From: Alphaproteobacteria bacterium
GTDB taxonomy: Bacteria; Pseudomonadota; Alphaproteobacteria; GCA-2731375
Reading direction: 5' to 3'
DNA: 31,120 nucleotides
Assembly (NCBI GenBank): GCA_965225945.1
Contig: CBDDBZ010000017.1
Span: 1-31,120, forward strand
Positions 2,493-9,789 of the stretch are shown here, in pieces. Position 1 is the stretch's first letter. Each line of letters starts with the position of its first letter. The translations under genes and the position numbers were made by a program. The notes under the pieces were generated by a model. The model ran no database searches. It was not told the DNA's origin and saw only the letters and a program-made list of their open reading frames with translations.

Positions 2493-2989
2493 GTTCCTGG
2501 CCTTTCCCCTGTAACCTTCAATTCCATGGCGATGATATCCAAATCCCACCGTCGTTCGAGTGGGTTCACTCCCTCGCCAGCCCAATATTGGTATTCCGAG
2601 CGTGCTCGGAAGCCAATTTGAACGCCGGCGGCAATCGCAGTCGGGCAAGCCGCGTTCGAGACCTCGCAACGGCACGGTTGCCAGGTTCCTGCCGCCAGCT
2701 TCACCGCCAGCGCGTCGGGCGGCTCCGGCCGCCAAAAGCGTCGGACACCGAGGTTTCCACTACATTCAAACAACTCGGCCTCGACCGCCGCCGGCTAGCC
2801 GAAGGTGCGGGATACTTCTCCACGCCATGTTCTATGGCGCCGCCTACCACAAGTCGATGGTGGGGATAGGGAGCTGTGGAACGGCGTGCAAAGTTGACCC
2901 CTGTTGAGGGGTGATCGGCGTCCAAATTTGACCCCCTGAGCCTGGCTAGTCCAAGTCACCTCGTTTTTGGGCGGACGAGGTGGTGGGGG

Positions 2990-4501
2990 ATGTTGGTCGT
3001 GGAGACGATAGCGCGGATCCGGCGGGAGTATTTCGTCAAGGGGAAGCCGATCAAGGAGATCGTGCGGGACGTGAAGGTCTCGGGCAACACGGTGCGCAAG
3101 GTGATCCGTTCGCAGGCGACGGCGTTCACCTACGACCGGCGGGTCCAGCCGATGCCGAAGCTGGGGCCGTGGACGGTCGAGCTGGAGCGGATGCTGGAGG
3201 CCAACGAGACCAAGTCGAAGCGGGAGCGGCTGACGCTGCTACGGATCTCCGAAGCCCTCGAGGGTCTGGGCTATGGCGGCGGCTACGACGCGGTGCGGCG
3301 CTACGCCAAGGCGTGGCGGTGGCGCCGTTCGGCATCGACGGCGCAGACCTATGTGCCGTTGGTGTTCTCGCCGGGCGAGGCCTATCAGTTCGACTGGAGC
3401 CACGAGTACGTGGTGCTGGCGGGGGTGACGACCAAGGTCAAGGTCGCGCACGTCCGGCTGTGCCACAGCCGAATGTTCTTCGTCCGCGCTTATCCGCGCG
3501 AGAGCCAGGAGATGGTGTTCGACGCCCACGACCGGGCATTCCGGCTGTTCCAGGGTGCCTGCCGGCGAGGCATCTACGACAACATGAAGACGGCGGTGCA
3601 GACCGTCCTCATCGGCAAGGAGCGCGCGTTCAACCGGCGCTTCGTGCAGATGTGTGGCCACTACCTGGTCGAACCGACAGCATGCACGCCGGGAGCGGGA
3701 TGGGAGAAGGGGCAGGTCGAGAACCAGGTCGGGATCATCCGCGGTCGGTTCTTCACCCCGCGGCTGCGCTTCAAGACCTACGACGAGCTCAACGCCTGGC
3801 TCTTGGACCAGTGCGTCGCCTACGCCCGGCGTCATCCCCACCCGGTGTTCAAGGACAGGACTGTCTGGCAGGTGTTCGAGGACGAGCGTCCGTCCCTGGT
3901 CGGCTATCGCGGGCCGTTCGACGGCTTCCACGCGGTCCCGGCGTCGGTGTCGAAGACCTGCCTGGTGCGCTTCGACAGCAACAAGTACAGCGTGGCGGCG
4001 CGCGCCGTCGGCCGTCCGGTCGAGGTCCATGCCTACGCCGATCGCATCGTCATCCGCCAGGACGGCGAGATCGTCGCCGAGCATGCCCGGCGCTTCGGCC
4101 GCGACCAGACCGTCTATGACCCGTGGCACTACGTGCCCGTGCTGGCGAGGAAGCCCGGTGCGCTTCGTAACGGCGCGCCGTTCAAGGACTGGGCGCTGCC
4201 CGGCGCCCTGGGTCGCGTGCGCGTCCGGCTCGCCGGCCACGACGACGGCGACAGGCAGATGGTCGAGATCCTCACCGCCGTGCTGGCGGATGGGCTGGCG
4301 GCGGTGGAGGCCGCCTGTGCCGAGGCGCTCGCTGGCGGCGTGTGCAGCGCCGACGTCGTGCTCAACATCCTCAATCGTCGGCGCCAGCCGTCCGAGACGG
4401 CGCCGATCCCGACGCCCGCGAACCTGCGTCTTCGCTTTGAGCCGGTGGCCGATTGCACCCGCTACGACCGCTTGAGGGGGGTCGGCCATGGAGCGCCATG
4501 A
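2990..4501 (+). CDS. istA: IS21 family DDE transposase IstA
   Basis: N-terminal HTH; QFDW, IYDNMKT and GWEKGQVE motifs. Confidence 0.95.
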
Positions 4502-5216
4502 GGTCCTGGAGATGATGGCCGCACTCAAGCTCGCCGGCATGCGCGACGCGTTCGACGAGGTGCTCGCCGACGGCCTCAAGCGCCAGCATCCGATGCAGCG
4601 AATCATCGGCGAGCTGTTGAAGGCCGAGATCGCCGACAAGCAGGCGCGATCCATCAAGTACCAGATGAGTGGCGCCAAGCTGCCGCTGGCCAAGGAGCTG
4701 GCCGACTTCGACTTCACCGACACCCCGGTCAACGAGCCGCTGGTCCGCGAGTTGGCGGTCGGCGGCTTCCTGGCCAACCAGCGCAACGCCGTGCTGATCG
4801 GCGGCACCGGCACCGGCAAGAGCCATCTCGCCGTCGCCATCGCGCGGGCCTGCATCCGCGATGGCGCCCGGGGCCGCTTCTTCAACGTCGTCGACCTGGT
4901 CAACCGGCTCGAGGCCGAAGCCCGCGCCGGCCGCCAGGGCCGGCTCGCCGATCAGCTGGCCCGGCGCGACCTCGTCATCCTCGACGAGCTCGGCTACCTG
5001 CCCTTCGCCCAAACCGGAGGCCAGCTGCTGTTCCACCTCGTCAGCCGGCTCTACGAGCGCACCTCGATCATCGTCACCACCAACCTGACCTTCGGCGAAT
5101 GGCCGTCCGTCTTCGGCGACGCCAAGATGACCACCGCGCTCCTCGATCGTCTGACGCACCACTGCGAGATCATCGAGACCGGAAACGACTCCTGGCGCTT
5201 CAAGAATCGGTCCTAA
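4488..5216 (+). CDS. istB: IS21 helper AAA+ ATPase IstB
   Basis: Walker A GGTGTGKS, Walker [18 protein letters not shown]; overlaps istA by 14 nt. Confidence 0.95.
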
Positions 5217-5474
5217 AGGCAACCGATCCACCTGCCGCCCGGTCGCCCAGGTGGGCCCACAGGAACCTCCCACGCGCGGTCCGCCGCCAGCCGCGTGGTG
5301 GGCGCGTCGGCCCGCGCGCGGGCCCCTCCTATGGACTACCTGTACGACCTCCGCCGTGCATCCCCAAAGGGGTCAACATTGCACGCCGATAGGGGGTCAA
5401 TGTTCAACGCCGATTGACAGGGGAGCAGCGCTGAAGCCAACACCAAACGCGGGAATCGCGGTAAAATCCCCGAC

Positions 5475-5900
5475 ATGGCGATTCGCGAACACCCGACCCC
5501 GGGCACAATCTTGCTCTGCAATTTCGAGAATGGCTTCAAAGTGCCAGAAATGGTGAAGAGGCGGCCATCGGTTGTGGTTAGCCCAAAAATTAGCGGTCGG
5601 CCGAACTTGTGCACGGTGGTCCCGCTCAGCACGACACCACCCAAACCGAAAATGGCCTATCATCTTCTTCTCCACATTGACCCTCCGCTGCCACCGCCTT
5701 GGCACGAAGGGCCGAATTGGGCCAAGGCAGACATGATCATCTCCGTGGCGTTCCACCGCCTCGATTTGATCCGCCTCGGCAAGGCCATGACCGGCAAACG
5801 CAACTATCGATACGAGACACTTTCGTCCGATCAGATGAAACAGCTACGACGATGCATGCTGTACTCCCTCGGTATGGGCCGGTTGACGCAACACCTGTAA
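5475..5900 (+). CDS. PemK/MazF-family endoribonuclease toxin (YifN-like); no antitoxin ORF seen
   Basis: PGTILLCNF..GFKVPEMVKRRPSVVVSP...LCTVVPLSTT carries the K-x-R-P and VVPLST signatures of the PemK fold. Confidence 0.85.
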   Translation: MAIREHPTPGTILLCNFENGFKVPEMVKRRPSVVVSPKISGRPNLCTVVPLSTTPPKPKMAYHLLLHIDPPLPPPWHEGPNWAKADMIISVAFHRLDLIRLGKAMTGKRNYRYETLSSDQMKQLRRCMLYSLGMGRLTQHL

Positions 5901-5910
5901 AATGCATACT
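5883..5910 (+). promoter_or_regulatory. Putative sigma70 promoter overlapping the 3' end of the toxin gene
   Basis: TTGACG (5883-5888), 16 nt spacer, CATACT (5905-5910), in an AT-rich patch of a GC-rich genome; no credible CDS downstream on this strand. Confidence 0.5.
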
Positions 5911-6022
5911 CTGTTGGTGATTGCGGCGCTCTAGCTTGGAGACAGGCAGATCCGCGTCTAAGACCCCAACAGGGGCACGGCCGCCCAGGCGACACCAAGC
6001 CGAGGGCGGCCGCGATCGTTTT
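5911..6022 (+). ncRNA. Candidate structured small RNA downstream of the PemK-like toxin
   Basis: Follows the promoter motif. Stems GCGG/CCGC (5923-5926/5952-5955), CCCC-AACA-GGGG (5964-5975) and a perfect 9-bp CGGCCGCCC/GGGCGGCCG (5978-5986/6004-6012), then TTTT at 6019-6022. Confidence 0.45.
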
Positions 6023-6060
6023 GGGCCCCGTCACGCTGCCTCGCGCACCGCCAGCGCGTC

Positions 6061-6185
6061 GAGGCCATAGCCGAGAAGGACTCGCCATTCGAGCCGAGGA
6101 CGGCGCGGATGCTCATGGAAGTGGGCCGCAACGAGCGACTTCGGAACCAATGGTTCCGATTTGCCGCCGTCGATGGACCCTCTAG
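6061..6185 (+). pseudogene. Frameshifted relic of a DUF3102-like phage protein
   Basis: Reads EAIAEKDSPFEPRTARMLMEVGRNERLRN, then after a frameshift GSDLPPS; resembles the recalled LPF..RTA..LM....N..L......LP.SW pattern. No start codon context. Confidence 0.45.
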
Positions 6186-6219
6186 GTGACGATCGGAATT
6201 CGTGTCTCGATGGCGCGGC

Positions 6220-7245
6220 TCACTCGACCGCCAGTTCCGCCCGTACCAGCGCCGCGCCCGCCACCAGGGCCCGCAACTTCCGCTCCGCCACGTCGCGGGC
6301 GAGCGGCACCATGCCGCAATTGGTGCAAGGATAGAGCTTCTCGGGCCGGACGTACGCCAGCGCCTCGCGGATCGTCGAGGCCACCGCTTCCGGGCTCTCG
6401 ATCTCGCTCGTCGCGACATCGATAGCGCCGGCGAGGACGTCCTTGCCGTCGAGCAGCGCGATCAGTTCGATCGGCACCTTCGAATTCGCGCACTCTAGCG
6501 AAACCTGGTCGATGCTGCTCCGCGCCAGGACGGGGAAAGTCTCGCGATACTGGGTCCATTCCTCGCCGAGCGTCGCCTTCCAATCGAGGTTCGCCTGGAT
6601 CCCATAGCCATAGCAGATGTGGACCGCGGTCTTGCAGGAAAGACCCTCGGCGGCGCGTTCCAGCGCCTCGATGCCCCAGCTCTTGACCTCGTCCAGGTAG
6701 ACGTTGAAGGCGGGTTCGTCGAACTGGATGACGTCGACGCCCAAGGCTTCCAACTGCCTGGCTTCTTGGTTCAGCACGTCGGCGAACGCCATGGCCAGCT
6801 TGGGCCGGTCGCGGTAGTGCTCGTCGGCGAGCGTATCGACGATGGTCATGGGTCCGGGCATGGTGAACTTCAGCTTGCGCCTGGTATGGGCCCGGGTGAA
6901 GCGGACTTCCTCGGCGTGGATCGGTCCGCGACGCCGGATCGGGCCGGTCACGGTCGGCACCTCGGCCTTGTAGCGGTCGGCGCGGATGCCGATGATCGTC
7001 TTCTTGGTGAAATCGACGCCCTCGATATGTTCGAGGATGCCGTGGACGAAATGCCGGCGAAAGACCTCGCCGTTGCTGACGATATCGATGCCAGCGTCTT
7101 CCTGGTCCTTGAGCACGACGAGTGCGGCATCGCATTGCGCCTCCCAGAGCGCCTCGCTCTCGATCCGCCACGGCGCCCAAAGGCTTTCCGGTTCCGCCAG
7201 CCAGGTCGGCTTCGGCAGGCTGCCGGCGACTGTCGTTTGCAACAT
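6220..7245 (-). CDS. mesD: Cobalamin-independent core methionine synthase (catalytic barrel only, MesD-like), 341 aa
   Basis: TTVAGSLPKP, PGPMTIVDT, QFDEPAF; Zn ligands HIC, SLEC and PCTNCGMVPL. ATG 7245 chosen (GTG 7251 is an alternative). Confidence 0.85.
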   Translation of the reverse strand: MLQTTVAGSLPKPTWLAEPESLWAPWRIESEALWEAQCDAALVVLKDQEDAGIDIVSNGEVFRRHFVHGILEHIEGVDFTKKTIIGIRADRYKAEVPTVTGPIRRRGPIHAEEVRFTRAHTRRKLKFTMPGPMTIVDTLADEHYRDRPKLAMAFADVLNQEARQLEALGVDVIQFDEPAFNVYLDEVKSWGIEALERAAEGLSCKTAVHICYGYGIQANLDWKATLGEEWTQYRETFPVLARSSIDQVSLECANSKVPIELIALLDGKDVLAGAIDVATSEIESPEAVASTIREALAYVRPEKLYPCTNCGMVPLARDVAERKLRALVAGAALVRAELAVE

Positions 7246-7266
7246 TTCCACCCCCCGTCCGGCTTT

Positions 7267-7294
7267 ATCTTATCGTCGAGCGATTGTCGCGCAA
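7267..7294 (-). promoter_or_regulatory. Putative sigma70 promoter of the methionine synthase gene
   Basis: Minus strand TTGCGC, 16 nt spacer, TAAGAT, about 20 nt before the start codon. Confidence 0.35.
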
Positions 7295-7346
7295 CCGAGC
7301 CCGACATGCCCTTCCCCGGGGCGCTCGGATCGACCTCCCATCGGCA

Positions 7347-7640
7347 CTATAGGGGTTGGCGTCTTCGAGGCCGCGGCTGTGCCTCCCCGACCCCCTCCGC
7401 CTCGACCATCGCCACCACGTCCACCACTGCCCCCATCGGCGAGGCCGGCGCCATCGCCGCCCCGAGGCCGCCACCAAGACGGGACATCGAGCGCCGGAGC
7501 TGCTCGGCCGTCCCGCCGCGCTGGCCGGTGACGAAGACCTCGCGGACCCGGCCGTCGGTGGCGAAGCCGACCGAGACGGCGCAGACGTGGCCCTCGAAGG
7601 CGAGATTGATCGTCTCATGCCGGCGGCGGTTCGGCAGGCG
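7347..7640 (-). pseudogene. 5'-truncated, internally deleted relic of a small stand-alone protein related to the class II ribonucleotide reductase C-terminal (TSCPD-like) domain
   Basis: Open frame with no start at its 5' end: RLPNRRRHETINLAFEGHVCAVSVGFATDGRVREVFV...PASPMGAVVDVVA. In-frame TAG immediately upstream. Confidence 0.55.
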
Positions 7641-7651
7641 ACCCTAAGGCG

Positions 7652-7923
7652 ATGTTGGGCACGCTTCGCGAGAAGCTGATCAAGATCGGAGCAAAGGTGG
7701 TCCGCCATGGGCGGTACGTCACGTTTCAACCTGCCGAGGTCGCAATCCCGATAAGTCTGTTCGCCAACATCGTGCGCCTGATTGACGGCCTGCGATCGGC
7801 CCCTCTACCGCCATGGCGGCGCTCGATCCCGTGGCATCGAGTTCTTCCGACGGGAAGTGTGGCGCGATCGCCCTTCATGCTACCATCGTCGGCAACCGGG
7901 AGCAGCCATCTGGGGATTTTCGG
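7652..7923 (+). mobile_element. 3' remnant of an IS1380-family element (transposase C-terminus plus right end)
   Basis: TLREKLIKIGAKVVRHGRYVTFQPAEVAIP..LFANIVRLIDGLRSAPLPP matches the IS1380 transposase tail; the end CATCTGGGGATTTTCGG (to 7923) resembles the family terminal repeat. Confidence 0.8.
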
Positions 7924-7924
7924 T

Positions 7925-8707
7925 TTGAAAGCTACATGGCGAATATCGGTTAAACCATGGTCCTCATGGGTTGCCCTCATCGCTGCGTTCCTGGCGCTGG
8001 GCGGCGCACTTGCAGACGGGAAGGGGCGCGCGAGCAGTGACGTGGATTTACTGTTGGTGATTGCGCTCGATGTATCGGGCAGTGTGGATAAGGGCGAATT
8101 TAATTTACAGCGTGAGGGGCTTACTCGCGCTCTCGCATCGCCGCAAGTGGCTGAGGCAATCGTCGGCGGGGTGAACGGGTCGATTGCCGTTACCGTGGTT
8201 CAGTGGTCGGGTTTTATCGAAAAAATTGTCATGGTTGACTGGGTGAGGGTGTCAAACGCTAGCGATCTATCGCGCCTTGCCGATGAAATCCGTCAGATGA
8301 CGCGCCGCTATGATGACGGCGCGACCGACATCGGGGGAGCCATCAGCTTTTGCCAGCGGCTGTTCGCCTCCGCCCCGTATTCGGGCATGAGACGGGTGAT
8401 TGATATCGTCGGCGATGGCACCAACAATGTAAATTACTCGCCTAATCTCGAACGCGATCGTGTCGTTGAGACAGGAACGACAATCAATGCACTTGCCATT
8501 ACCGCCACCACCTCTACGCTTGCCGGCTATTACCGCGACAAAGTGATTGGCGGCGCCGGCGCGTTCGTTGAATCAGCAGCAGACTACAGCGCCTTTGAAA
8601 CCGCAATGCTTCGAAAACTCGTGCGCGAAATCGGGGGCCGATTATATTCTGCTGGCGCTGACCAACGCCTTCCCGTCATTTCCGCGCCTTCCACTTCATT
8701 CCTCTGA
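7925..8707 (+). CDS. DUF1194 (von Willebrand factor A-like) exported protein; start uncertain
   Basis: Signal-peptide-like WVALIAAFLALGGALA; MIDAS-like LDVSGS, VVQWSG, TDIGGAI, RRVIDIVGDG, VIGGAGAFV, KLVREI. The in-frame start candidate after the IS end and before the hydrophobic segment is TTG 7925. Confidence 0.8.
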   Translation: MKATWRISVKPWSSWVALIAAFLALGGALADGKGRASSDVDLLLVIALDVSGSVDKGEFNLQREGLTRALASPQVAEAIVGGVNGSIAVTVVQWSGFIEKIVMVDWVRVSNASDLSRLADEIRQMTRRYDDGATDIGGAISFCQRLFASAPYSGMRRVIDIVGDGTNNVNYSPNLERDRVVETGTTINALAITATTSTLAGYYRDKVIGGAGAFVESAADYSAFETAMLRKLVREIGGRLYSAGADQRLPVISAPSTSFL

Positions 8708-8961
8708 AAGTAGGAATCCATGGTTTCGGCATCCAGATTTGCGCGTGGTGGGTATAGCGCGACAAATAGGCGAGCACGGCCTCGGGTCCGCCGAAGGGTG
8801 GCTTGGCATGGACGACCCAATCCTATTTGCGGATCGGCGCCAAGAAGGCCTGGAAGGCGTGAGGCTCGGCGAGGGGGCGTAGCCATCGGGTAAGACACGG
8901 CCTTCCATACCGCCGGGCGCCATGGGTTATAGTCGCTCTGCCAAATCGAAGAGAGGGAACC

Positions 8962-9789
8962 ATGGCTCGACTGGACGGCAAGGTCGCCTTCATCACCGGC
9001 GCGGGCTCCGGCATCGGGCGCGCCACGGCCAGGCTGTTCGCGAGCGAGGGCGCGCGCGCCTTCATCACCGGCGCGGGCTCCGGCATCGGGCGCGCCACGG
9101 CCAGGCTGTTCGCGAGCGAGGGCGCGCGCGTCGTCGTCGCGGACATCGACGTTCCCGCCGGCGAGGAGACGGTGGCGCTGGTCGAGGAGGCGGGCCACCA
9201 AGCGGTCTTCGTCGAGACCGACGTCACGGCCGAGGAGAGCGTCGCCGCCGCCGCGACGCGCGCGCTCGAAGCCTTCGCCACGGTGAACGTGCTGCACAAC
9301 AATGCCGGCGGCTCGTCCCTAAAAGACAGCCGGCTGACGGAGGGCTCCATCGACGAATTTTGGCGGGTGATCGGCGTCGATCTCTTCGGCACCTGGCTCT
9401 GCAGCCGCGCCATCATCCCGATCATGATCGAGGGCGGTGGCGGCTCGGTCATCAACATGACCTCGAACGTCGCCCTGATGGCGATCCCCGGCCGCGATTC
9501 CTATACCGCCGCCAAGGGCGGCGTGGCCTCGATGACCCGCTCGATGGCGGCCGAGTACGCCGCCGAGGGCATTCGCGTGAACGCCATCGCGCCCTCGGTG
9601 ACGCTGACGCCCCGGGTGCGCAACATCCTCGCCAACGATCCCTTGGTGGGCGAGCTCTCGCGCACCCACCTGGTGGGCCTGGCGGAGCCGGAGGATATCG
9701 CCAACACGGCGCTGTTCCTGGCCTCGGACGAATCCCGCATCACCACCGGGCACATCCTCACCGTCGACAGCGGCACCACGATCTCCTGA
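8962..9789 (+). CDS. Short-chain dehydrogenase/reductase (NAD-preferring type) with internal 24-aa duplication
   Basis: TGAGSGIG, VADID, NNAG, YTAAK; SD GAGGG upstream. Confidence 0.92.
   Translation: MARLDGKVAFITGAGSGIGRATARLFASEGARAFITGAGSGIGRATARLFASEGARVVVADIDVPAGEETVALVEEAGHQAVFVETDVTAEESVAAAATRALEAFATVNVLHNNAGGSSLKDSRLTEGSIDEFWRVIGVDLFGTWLCSRAIIPIMIEGGGGSVINMTSNVALMAIPGRDSYTAAKGGVASMTRSMAAEYAAEGIRVNAIAPSVTLTPRVRNILANDPLVGELSRTHLVGLAEPEDIANTALFLASDESRITTGHILTVDSGTTIS
8986..9129 (+). repeat. Perfect 2 x 72-bp tandem duplication inside the SDR
   Basis: 8986-9057 is identical to 9058-9129; each encodes AFITGAGSGIGRATARLFASEGAR. Confidence 0.97.

Follow-up and report, generated by a model that had tools for sequence, protein, structure and literature searches.

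A PemK/MazF-fold toxin gene coupled to a single-copy structured RNA: a candidate type III-like toxin–antitoxin module

A PemK-type toxin gene, its overprinted promoter and a structured RNA

We analysed a 31,120-nucleotide stretch of an alphaproteobacterial contig (GenBank CBDDBZ010000017.1), hereafter the window, with a focus on a YifN-like toxin gene and the structured RNA encoded directly behind it (table 1). A preliminary description of this DNA had taken the gene for a full-length PemK-fold toxin lacking an adjacent antitoxin open reading frame (ORF), and the region downstream for a separately promoted RNA antitoxin. The reading of the gene was borne out. The protein matched the Pfam family PemK_toxin (PF02452) over residues 9–127 with 43.8 bits (cut-off 23.1, E = 3.3e-11), while no second Pfam family appeared at E-values up to 1 and no NCBIfam model matched. 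No antitoxin-like ORF adjoins the gene on either side in the window, since its neighbours are an insertion sequence of the IS21 type upstream and a convergent MetE-like gene downstream.

Table 1. Positions of the toxin gene, the promoter, the RNA and neighbouring features in the window.
Feature	Position	Strand	Remarks
Toxin ORF, 141 aa	5475–5900	+	MazF/PemK-fold, YifN-like, endoribonuclease type; appears intact
–35 box TTGACG	5883–5888	+	doubles as Leu-Thr codons of the toxin
–10 box CATACT	5905–5910	+	16-nt spacer after the –35 box; just beyond the stop codon
Conserved RNA core, about 100 nt	5917–6017	+	covariance model R1: 59.5 bits, E = 3e-13
P1, two-part hairpin with conserved internal loop (5′ C-U-C type, 3′ U)	5923–5955	+	both parts covary
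Single-stranded linker ending in near-invariant AAGAC	5957–5964	+	last C closes P2
P2, 4-bp hairpin CCCC/GGGG, 4-nt loop	5964–5975	+	pair 95–128: CG 37, UA 19, AU 15, GC 4
P3, 9-bp GC stem enclosing P4	5978–6012	+	changes on both sides in 7/7 modelled pairs
P4, 3-bp stem, 8-nt loop of conserved form G-A-n-n-n-C-A-A	5988–6001	+	nested inside P3
IS21-type element	2871–5421 (ends near)		IstA and IstB, doubled terminal inverted repeats
IstA	2990–4501		rve and Mu-transposase C-terminal domains
IstB	4488–5216		part of the IS21-type element, upstream of the toxin
IS21 terminal inverted repeats	2882–2937 and 5368–5414		doubled
MetE-like gene	6220–7251	–	downstream of the module, convergent

All 22 invariant columns of the toxin family were kept in the window protein. 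An AlphaFold structure made from 40 homologues (predicted local distance difference test, pLDDT, 90; predicted template modelling score, pTM, 0.84) was compared with the PDB using Foldseek, and the top matches were all MazF chains, from S. aureus, E. coli, M. tuberculosis and B. subtilis (E about 5e-6, template modelling score by target 0.63–0.80). Profile-to-PDB alignment placed the invariant R30 on the arginine (R29) of the E. coli MazF segment GHRPAVV, and S52/T53 on the segment CTTQS that holds T52; R29 and T52 are catalytic residues of E. coli MazF. The toxin was further predicted to form a homodimer (interaction prediction score from aligned errors, ipSAE, 0.85 versus 0.00 for the best control), with runs agreeing in at least 98% of contacts and a partner pLDDT of at least 87. 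The ipSAE mark is reached by 20 of 30 solved homodimers and by one of 23 single chains, and the predicted dimer may stem from likeness to solved MazF dimers.

Relatives of the toxin were collected in a survey of one genome per species, which yielded 257; the best 80 loci were analysed and came from Alpha-, Beta- and Gammaproteobacteria, Desulfobacterota-type lineages, Nitrospirae, Planctomycetes and Acidobacteria. The preliminary description had noticed that the last toxin codons spell a –35 box, and this promoter holds up both in the window and among the homologues. It is the only sigma-70-like site between 5200 and 6300 (mean in shuffles, 0.2) and matches the consensus at 9 of 12 positions, with the toxin stop codon (5898–5900) inside its spacer. 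TTGAC stands at the end of the toxin gene in 74/80 homologous loci, and a –35 box with at least five of six matches is likewise found in 74/80. The motif is translated as Leu-Thr in 70 sequences, 49 of which use ACA for the threonine, while elsewhere in the same genes TTG accounts for 17.6% of 966 leucine codons and ACA for 21.9% of 479 threonine codons. Where the protein ends earlier (L025, L044, L045, L053 and L075), TTGAC overlaps or follows the stop codon. Because the hexamer is kept in these loci, and given the codon usage elsewhere, it is conserved as DNA and not merely as codons. The –10-like hexamer has A at position 2 in 68/80 homologues and T at position 6 in 57/80, the spacer measures 17 nt in 52/80, and the conserved RNA starts 3–6 nt past the –10 box in 65/80.

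The E. coli K-12 yifN pseudogene (L083; NC_000913.3, 2815–3461 of the locus, minus strand) shares this overprinted layout. By eye, its end reads TTGACA, 17 nt and GATAAT; a pair of short hairpins, in which a CUAAGU stretch occurs, and a terminator come next, ahead of ppiC. The RNA there is much reduced, and R1, the covariance model described below, found no match near yifN (best score in that stretch, 5.3 bits).

Past the toxin stop, the 20–120 nt that follow were visibly conserved in nearly all 80 loci. R1, built from a seed of 59 sequences, describes this region with 22 base pairs in P1 (two parts), P2, P3 and P4, and in the window the stretch 5898–6025 folded with a z-score of –3.9 against shuffles. 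The absence of a credible ORF and the good folding had been recognised in the preliminary description; its count of three stems gives way to a conserved fold of four helices, and the 9-bp GC stem that it had assigned to a terminator turns out to be P3, a conserved helix. In most homologues (59/80) the RNA core is followed by a separate hairpin that resembles a terminator and has a T-run. The C-U-C/U internal loop of P1, the AAGAC linker (AAGUC in many beta-, gamma- and deltaproteobacterial copies) and the G-A-n-n-n-C-A-A loop of P4 are unpaired and near-invariant. The apical part of P1 is longer in the window than in most relatives.

The helices covary strongly. In the seed-related alignment, 94.4% of cells were paired, versus 36–44% in controls in which the 3′ partners had been slid; 20 of the 22 pairs change on both sides, and compensatory cells numbered 412 against 126 ± 11.5 in shuffles. 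These figures are conservative because about 16 rows of the beta/gamma/delta class lie one column off in P1. An independent alignment of 75 matches that had never been in the seed (67 distinct rows) gave 91.3% paired cells (slid controls, 30–42%), changes on both sides in 21 of 22 pairs, and 430 compensatory cells against 128 ± 12.8 in shuffles. Both alignments were fitted to R1, which favours the model, an effect bounded by the slid controls. Pair 8–80 of P1 illustrates the pattern, being GC in 39 sequences and CG in 36. Since G-U and U-G combinations (122 cells) outnumber A-C and C-A combinations (12 cells) ten to one, the RNA lies on the plus strand.

Taken alone, the window copy would permit a plain terminator region with chance promoter-like hexamers; a 9/12 promoter match and a GC stem are weak evidence. 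What decides the matter is the conservation of sequence and covarying structure in about 160 loci from several phyla, together with a –35 box that is kept even where it falls outside the reading frame. The R1 matches and the covariation in the seed-related and independent sets refute the terminator reading, to which we give practically no credence. A hidden peptide was rejected as well: no reading frame is conserved in the RNA region, the three frames being open in 37, 41 and 21 of the 80 homologues, and the core lengths spread over all residues modulo 3, with a median longest ORF of 16.5 aa.

Complementarities between parts of the window RNA (CACCAA with TTGGTG, CCAAGC with GCTTGG and CCAACAG with CTGTTGG) exist where they had been described, but only 5, 3 and 1 of the 80 homologues, respectively, show them again with a length of at least 6 nt. 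The pseudoknots proposed from them are window-specific and probably due to chance. Among the 45 column pairs of highest mutual information, the annotated helices were strongest and no unannotated covarying or pseudoknot pair stood out. Neither tandem nor direct repeats were found in the RNA region of the window or of three relatives (L004, L021 and L036), the only repeat returned by the search being the IS21 end repeat at 5369–5414.

The RNA is predicted to start at about 5917–5919. RNA-library contigs over the stretch start at 5919, 5928, 5935 and 5935, which is 2–18 nt past the predicted start, and run rightwards past 6080 or 6130. They come from four runs of two studies (three metatranscriptomes and one run with a guessed RNA label), are unstranded and cannot define ends; part of their cover could be the 3′ region of the convergent gene downstream, and the uncovered stretch 5622–5918 carries no weight by itself. 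For the transcript that the preliminary description had expected from about 5916, they give a weak hint that it starts at the predicted place and runs past about 6020 without termination in the window organism.

With about 160 members, strong covariation and no counterpart in Rfam 15, the RNA constitutes a new and well-supported structured RNA family. No Rfam family reached an E-value of 10 on 5900–6025 of the window, and in 15 related loci the scan returned tRNAs and sub-threshold matches, none of which reached an E-value of 1 on the RNA. Gut-2, the sole Rfam match in 5200–6400, is a chance match inside the toxin gene. BjrC68 (RF02353) overlaps the 3′ part of one relative's RNA (L036) with 23 bits against a cut-off of 39; we rejected this identity, the match being to a generic hairpin plus terminator and RF02353 missing the window RNA in its own genome. 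The RF02353 model also gave matches in 9 out of 14 control genomes that are unrelated. The pemK motif of Firmicutes, in the 5′-untranslated region (UTR), is another RNA associated with PemK genes; it was not found in the main text of PMC5737381. The mostly open-access literature that we searched held no description of this RNA, of a function for yifN or of an RNA partner of PemK/MazF.

Linkage of the RNA to the toxin in genomes, viruses and plasmids

The linkage between RNA and toxin is obligate. R1 matches the window once and no more, and the same holds for 79 of the 80 genome loci, 21 of the loci lying outside the seed. In every case the match immediately follows the toxin gene and shares its strand; the remaining locus, L050, breaks off at the toxin stop codon. 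In IMG/VR, 91 viral contigs encode a relative of the toxin, and R1 matched 75 of the 80 that were analysed at default filters. Three others (L114, L179 and L175) gave weak matches with filters off, one contig (L154) ends at the toxin stop, and in one (L152) the roughly 144 nt that follow the toxin gave no R1 match.

The same coupling was seen in 150 genomes of the window's class together with its own genome. The five genomes with an uninterrupted full- or near-full-length toxin match were exactly the five with a strong RNA match (56–79 bits), which lay each time about 20–35 nt past the end of the protein match, and one genome with a stop-broken toxin has no RNA match. Weak RNA matches of 23–26 bits without a toxin (G049, G069 and G112) fall inside long ORFs and are probably false. 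A second, weak R1 match (31.1 bits, E = 1.4e-4) occurs in the window's own genome, at G000:C39:519211-519297 on the plus strand (L082:1501-1587). The linker AAGAC, P2 and a P4-like loop are present and a terminator follows, but there is no PemK gene; upstream on the same strand lie overlapping ORFs of 179 and 98 aa without a Pfam family, and a search for homologues of the 179-aa ORF found only itself. This copy may be a distant relative of the RNA coupled to other proteins.

Relatives of the toxin occur in mobile settings, with 28 plasmid records and 11 phage-collection records beside the 91 viral contigs, and the toxin falls in PHROGs family phrog_15698, of unknown function. The Polaromonas plasmid pH8NP1 carries the pair, its RNA scoring 61.4 bits. 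A weaker copy of the RNA (22.7 bits) is found in a 13.5-kb phage-like element of Vibrio. In the Vibrio elements (L086, 877–1920) the toxin stands at the element end, after a CI-repressor-like helix-turn-helix (HTH) ORF and an S24 peptidase-like ORF, and the RNA match lies about 115 nt past the toxin.

Some viral contigs carry the pair in another order. In three (L164, L170 and L174) the RNA precedes the toxin by 40–130 nt and has a promoter and a terminator to itself, and two more (L167 and L171) have an upstream match at the same place. In another (L135) the RNA gene faces the toxin from the opposite strand, in convergent orientation, and has its own TTGACA promoter; L140 has the same minus-strand match, convergent with the toxin. 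An extra RNA copy about 500 nt upstream was found in L125, which has one toxin only. Because the RNA can be upstream or on the opposite strand, it is not a mere 3′-UTR element, and the survival of its adjacency to the toxin through rearrangement speaks for action in trans.

Candidate partners and modes of action

No protein is conserved beside the toxin. The 149 largest flanking ORFs fell into 141 clusters, none larger than two, and the upstream regions of the toxin are not conserved. When 400 nt of upstream and 450 nt of downstream sequence were compared in six frames, only one small ORF recurred; it encodes an XRE-like HTH protein and closely precedes the toxin in 5 of 81 loci (L028, L032, L053, L062 and a fragment in L046), all of which keep the RNA. 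Outside these loci lies the E. coli plasmid p5217 (L085, 90–875), where a distant toxin relative (169 aa, 32% identity) has an 86-aa ORF directly upstream and an RNA-like match of only 9.5 bits on the opposite strand; this may be an ordinary type II pair. The XRE-like ORF and the p5217 arrangement are what could be cited for a protein antitoxin that was missed, as a small unrecognised ORF or a distant gene, with the RNA doing an unrelated job. That no ORF family occurs in more than 5 of the 81 loci within the distances compared, that the RNA region has no conserved reading frame, and that a partner encoded elsewhere would not travel with a plasmid or prophage module make this explanation very improbable.

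Toxin–antitoxin (TA) systems of type I have an RNA complementary to the toxin mRNA, a feature not found here. Between positions –100 and +45 of the toxin mRNA, the longest run complementary to the RNA averaged 6.83 nt for cognate and 6.59 nt for non-cognate combinations (n = 80), and over the whole mRNA 7.64 versus 7.59 nt (n = 80). Duplex energies placed the cognate at a median rank of 32 of 80; they are inflated because they ignore each strand's own folding, and we therefore relied on run lengths. Antisense pairing with the toxin mRNA was rejected, cognate runs being no longer than non-cognate ones. An RNA that controls toxin synthesis, as a trans-acting antisense RNA in the manner of type I or as a cis-acting 3′-UTR element of mRNA stability, would fit with the position of the RNA in the 3′ region of the toxin in most loci, and thus in the read-through toxin transcript, and small RNAs (sRNAs) from promoters inside an upstream gene are known. 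We nevertheless consider it quite unlikely, given the missing cognate-specific complementarity to the start region or the whole mRNA, the lack of conservation upstream of the toxin, the RNA's own conserved promoter, and the upstream or opposite-strand copies, which are impossible for a 3′-UTR element.

The best explanation of the RNA is an antitoxin that binds the protein, because its adjacency to the toxin persists through rearrangements, its single-stranded motifs are invariant, its promoter is near consensus, and it is the sole conserved companion of a MazF-fold nuclease with aligned catalytic residues. The locus is thus probably a type III-like module of a toxin and an RNA antitoxin, of a new family and layout. 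The analysis establishes the RNA gene with its fold, promoter and strand, its linkage to the toxin and the lack of a conserved protein partner, while toxicity of the protein, its direct binding by the RNA, antitoxin function, lability of the RNA, and any role in stabilising mobile elements or in phage defence are inferred. The two genes of this module would encode a MazF/PemK-fold toxin of the endoribonuclease type and a single-copy, four-helix RNA of about 100 nt, the latter transcribed from the near-consensus sigma-70 promoter whose –35 box lies within the toxin's last codons. Toxin transcripts that are not terminated early would carry the RNA in their 3′ part, and the internal promoter would add further RNA. 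By type III logic the RNA would bind directly to the toxin dimer, and the AAGAC linker, the P1 internal loop and the G-A-n-n-n-C-A-A loop might sit in the RNA-binding groove as a pseudo-substrate. When synthesis of the RNA stops, through loss of the element or shut-off of host transcription by a phage, the RNA would decay and the nuclease would be freed.

Protein and RNA might instead form a working ribonucleoprotein in which the RNA is a cofactor, a sensor or a dedicated substrate, such as a decoy that reports phage or an RNA matured by the nuclease. The strict linkage, the invariant single-stranded motifs and the lack of antisense pairing fit any stable complex of protein and RNA, and a four-helix RNA is bigger and more elaborate than simple inhibition seems to need. 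Yet the MazF fold and the residues aligned with the catalytic ones are kept, free-standing MazF-type nucleases are normally paired with an inhibitor, the mobile and patchy distribution is typical of addiction or defence modules, and the RNA has no long variable stretch usable as a guide. On balance we find a working ribonucleoprotein unlikely, although clearly less so than control of toxin synthesis or a missed protein antitoxin.

Several observations count against the RNA-antitoxin reading. PADLOC defence models gave no match to the toxin, and in the window the toxin may have been severed from its own promoter by the IS21-type element. No recognisable terminator was detected by scan after the window RNA core, and the evidence for expression consists of unstranded contigs only. 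The XRE-like HTH protein could be a regulator or an added protein partner in its sub-branch. The yifN gene of K-12 is a pseudogene whose downstream RNA is too divergent for R1 to score. Finally, in ToxIN, CptIN and TenpIN the antitoxin consists of tandem repeats that the toxin processes, whereas the RNA here is a single copy without repeats.

ToxN shares the Kid/MazF-like fold. The toxin described here is a true member of PF02452 and does not belong to the ToxN/AbiQ, CptN or TenpN families; Pfam reported PF02452 alone, which sets it apart from ToxN, and its fold matches in the PDB are to MazF and not to ToxN. Type III TA systems are described in PMC4627078 as pairs in which a protein toxin is suppressed by an RNA antitoxin, and PMC8040213 places ToxI usually directly upstream of ToxN. 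The likeness to ToxIN, CptIN and TenpIN consists in an endoribonuclease toxin with an adjacent non-coding RNA gene and no protein antitoxin, the antitoxin role being our proposal in the present case. The order of promoter, RNA, terminator and toxin seen in ToxIN is that of a minority of the relatives here; in most loci the four-helix RNA lies downstream, with its promoter in the toxin's last codons. The proposed working is type III-like, yet two defining layout features of the known families, the repeat array and the upstream position, are missing.

PMC10511110 describes AvcID as a type III TA system that has an RNA antitoxin and plays a part in phage defence. It is an earlier case of a type III pair beyond the ToxN family; its toxin AvcD is a deoxycytidylate deaminase and not a nuclease, and the AvcI RNA is unrelated to the one reported here. 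MazEF, PemIK and Kis-Kid share with our toxin the fold, the Pfam family, the residues aligned to R29 and T52 of MazF and the predicted homodimer. They differ in that an antitoxin gene of the MazE/PemI type is not adjacent in the great majority of the roughly 160 loci, and the toxin, at 141 aa, exceeds E. coli MazF (111 aa) by about 30 residues. Promoters inside the 3′ end of an upstream gene drive sRNAs such as DapZ and MicL. These resemble the present RNA in having a promoter in the preceding coding end and a 3′ end shared with the mRNA, but they base-pair with distant mRNAs and are not carried about with the gene in a mobile module of two genes, whereas the RNA here keeps its toxin through rearrangements.

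That an orphan MazF-fold toxin is coupled to a single-copy RNA gene with a promoter of its own, as put forward in the preliminary description, is well supported by the linkage, the promoter, the covariation and the lack of a protein partner. We lean slightly towards a broader view, in which a MazF/PemK nuclease neutralised by a single-copy four-helix RNA with an overprinted promoter represents an undescribed, widespread class, carried by prophages, plasmids and islands in at least six phyla and serving in addiction or abortive infection as a switch that is triggered once the RNA is no longer transcribed. If so, type III systems would gain a new family and gene layout, and an RNA inhibitor would have taken over the classical type II toxin fold. 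Databases label thousands of PemK/MazF genes 'type II toxin' without an adjacent antitoxin, and the RNA offers a testable answer for one subfamily, which comprises 1107 representatives at an E-value of 1e-3 or better, 708 clusters at 1e-10 and 126 at 1e-30. Should the RNA be the antitoxin, the narrow type III repertoire would gain a non-repetitive RNA architecture, MazF-type nucleases would be linked to RNA inhibitors, a compact two-part module of prophages and plasmids would be explained, and the locus would provide a clean example of a promoter overprinted on coding sequence.

Neighbourhood of the module in the window

The preliminary description had placed phage-gene relics next to the toxin. 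The scanned region 2990–9789 instead holds the IS21-type IstA/IstB pair and chromosomal genes. Viral contigs nevertheless commonly carry relatives of the module. The G+C content is 0.56–0.58 at the toxin/RNA module versus 0.64–0.70 in the flanks. The right end of the IS21-type element lies about 53 nt 5′ of the toxin ATG and ends in TTGACA, so the toxin's own promoter may have been replaced by it. Further downstream, the first 45 or so residues of a DUF1194/VWA-domain ORF (7652–8707, plus strand) match the C-terminal end of a DDE transposase below threshold, which suggests a further transposon scar beside the locus. In the translation of a short-chain dehydrogenase ORF (8962–9789, plus strand), some 23 internal residues, around the glycine-rich nucleotide-binding motif, are duplicated in tandem.

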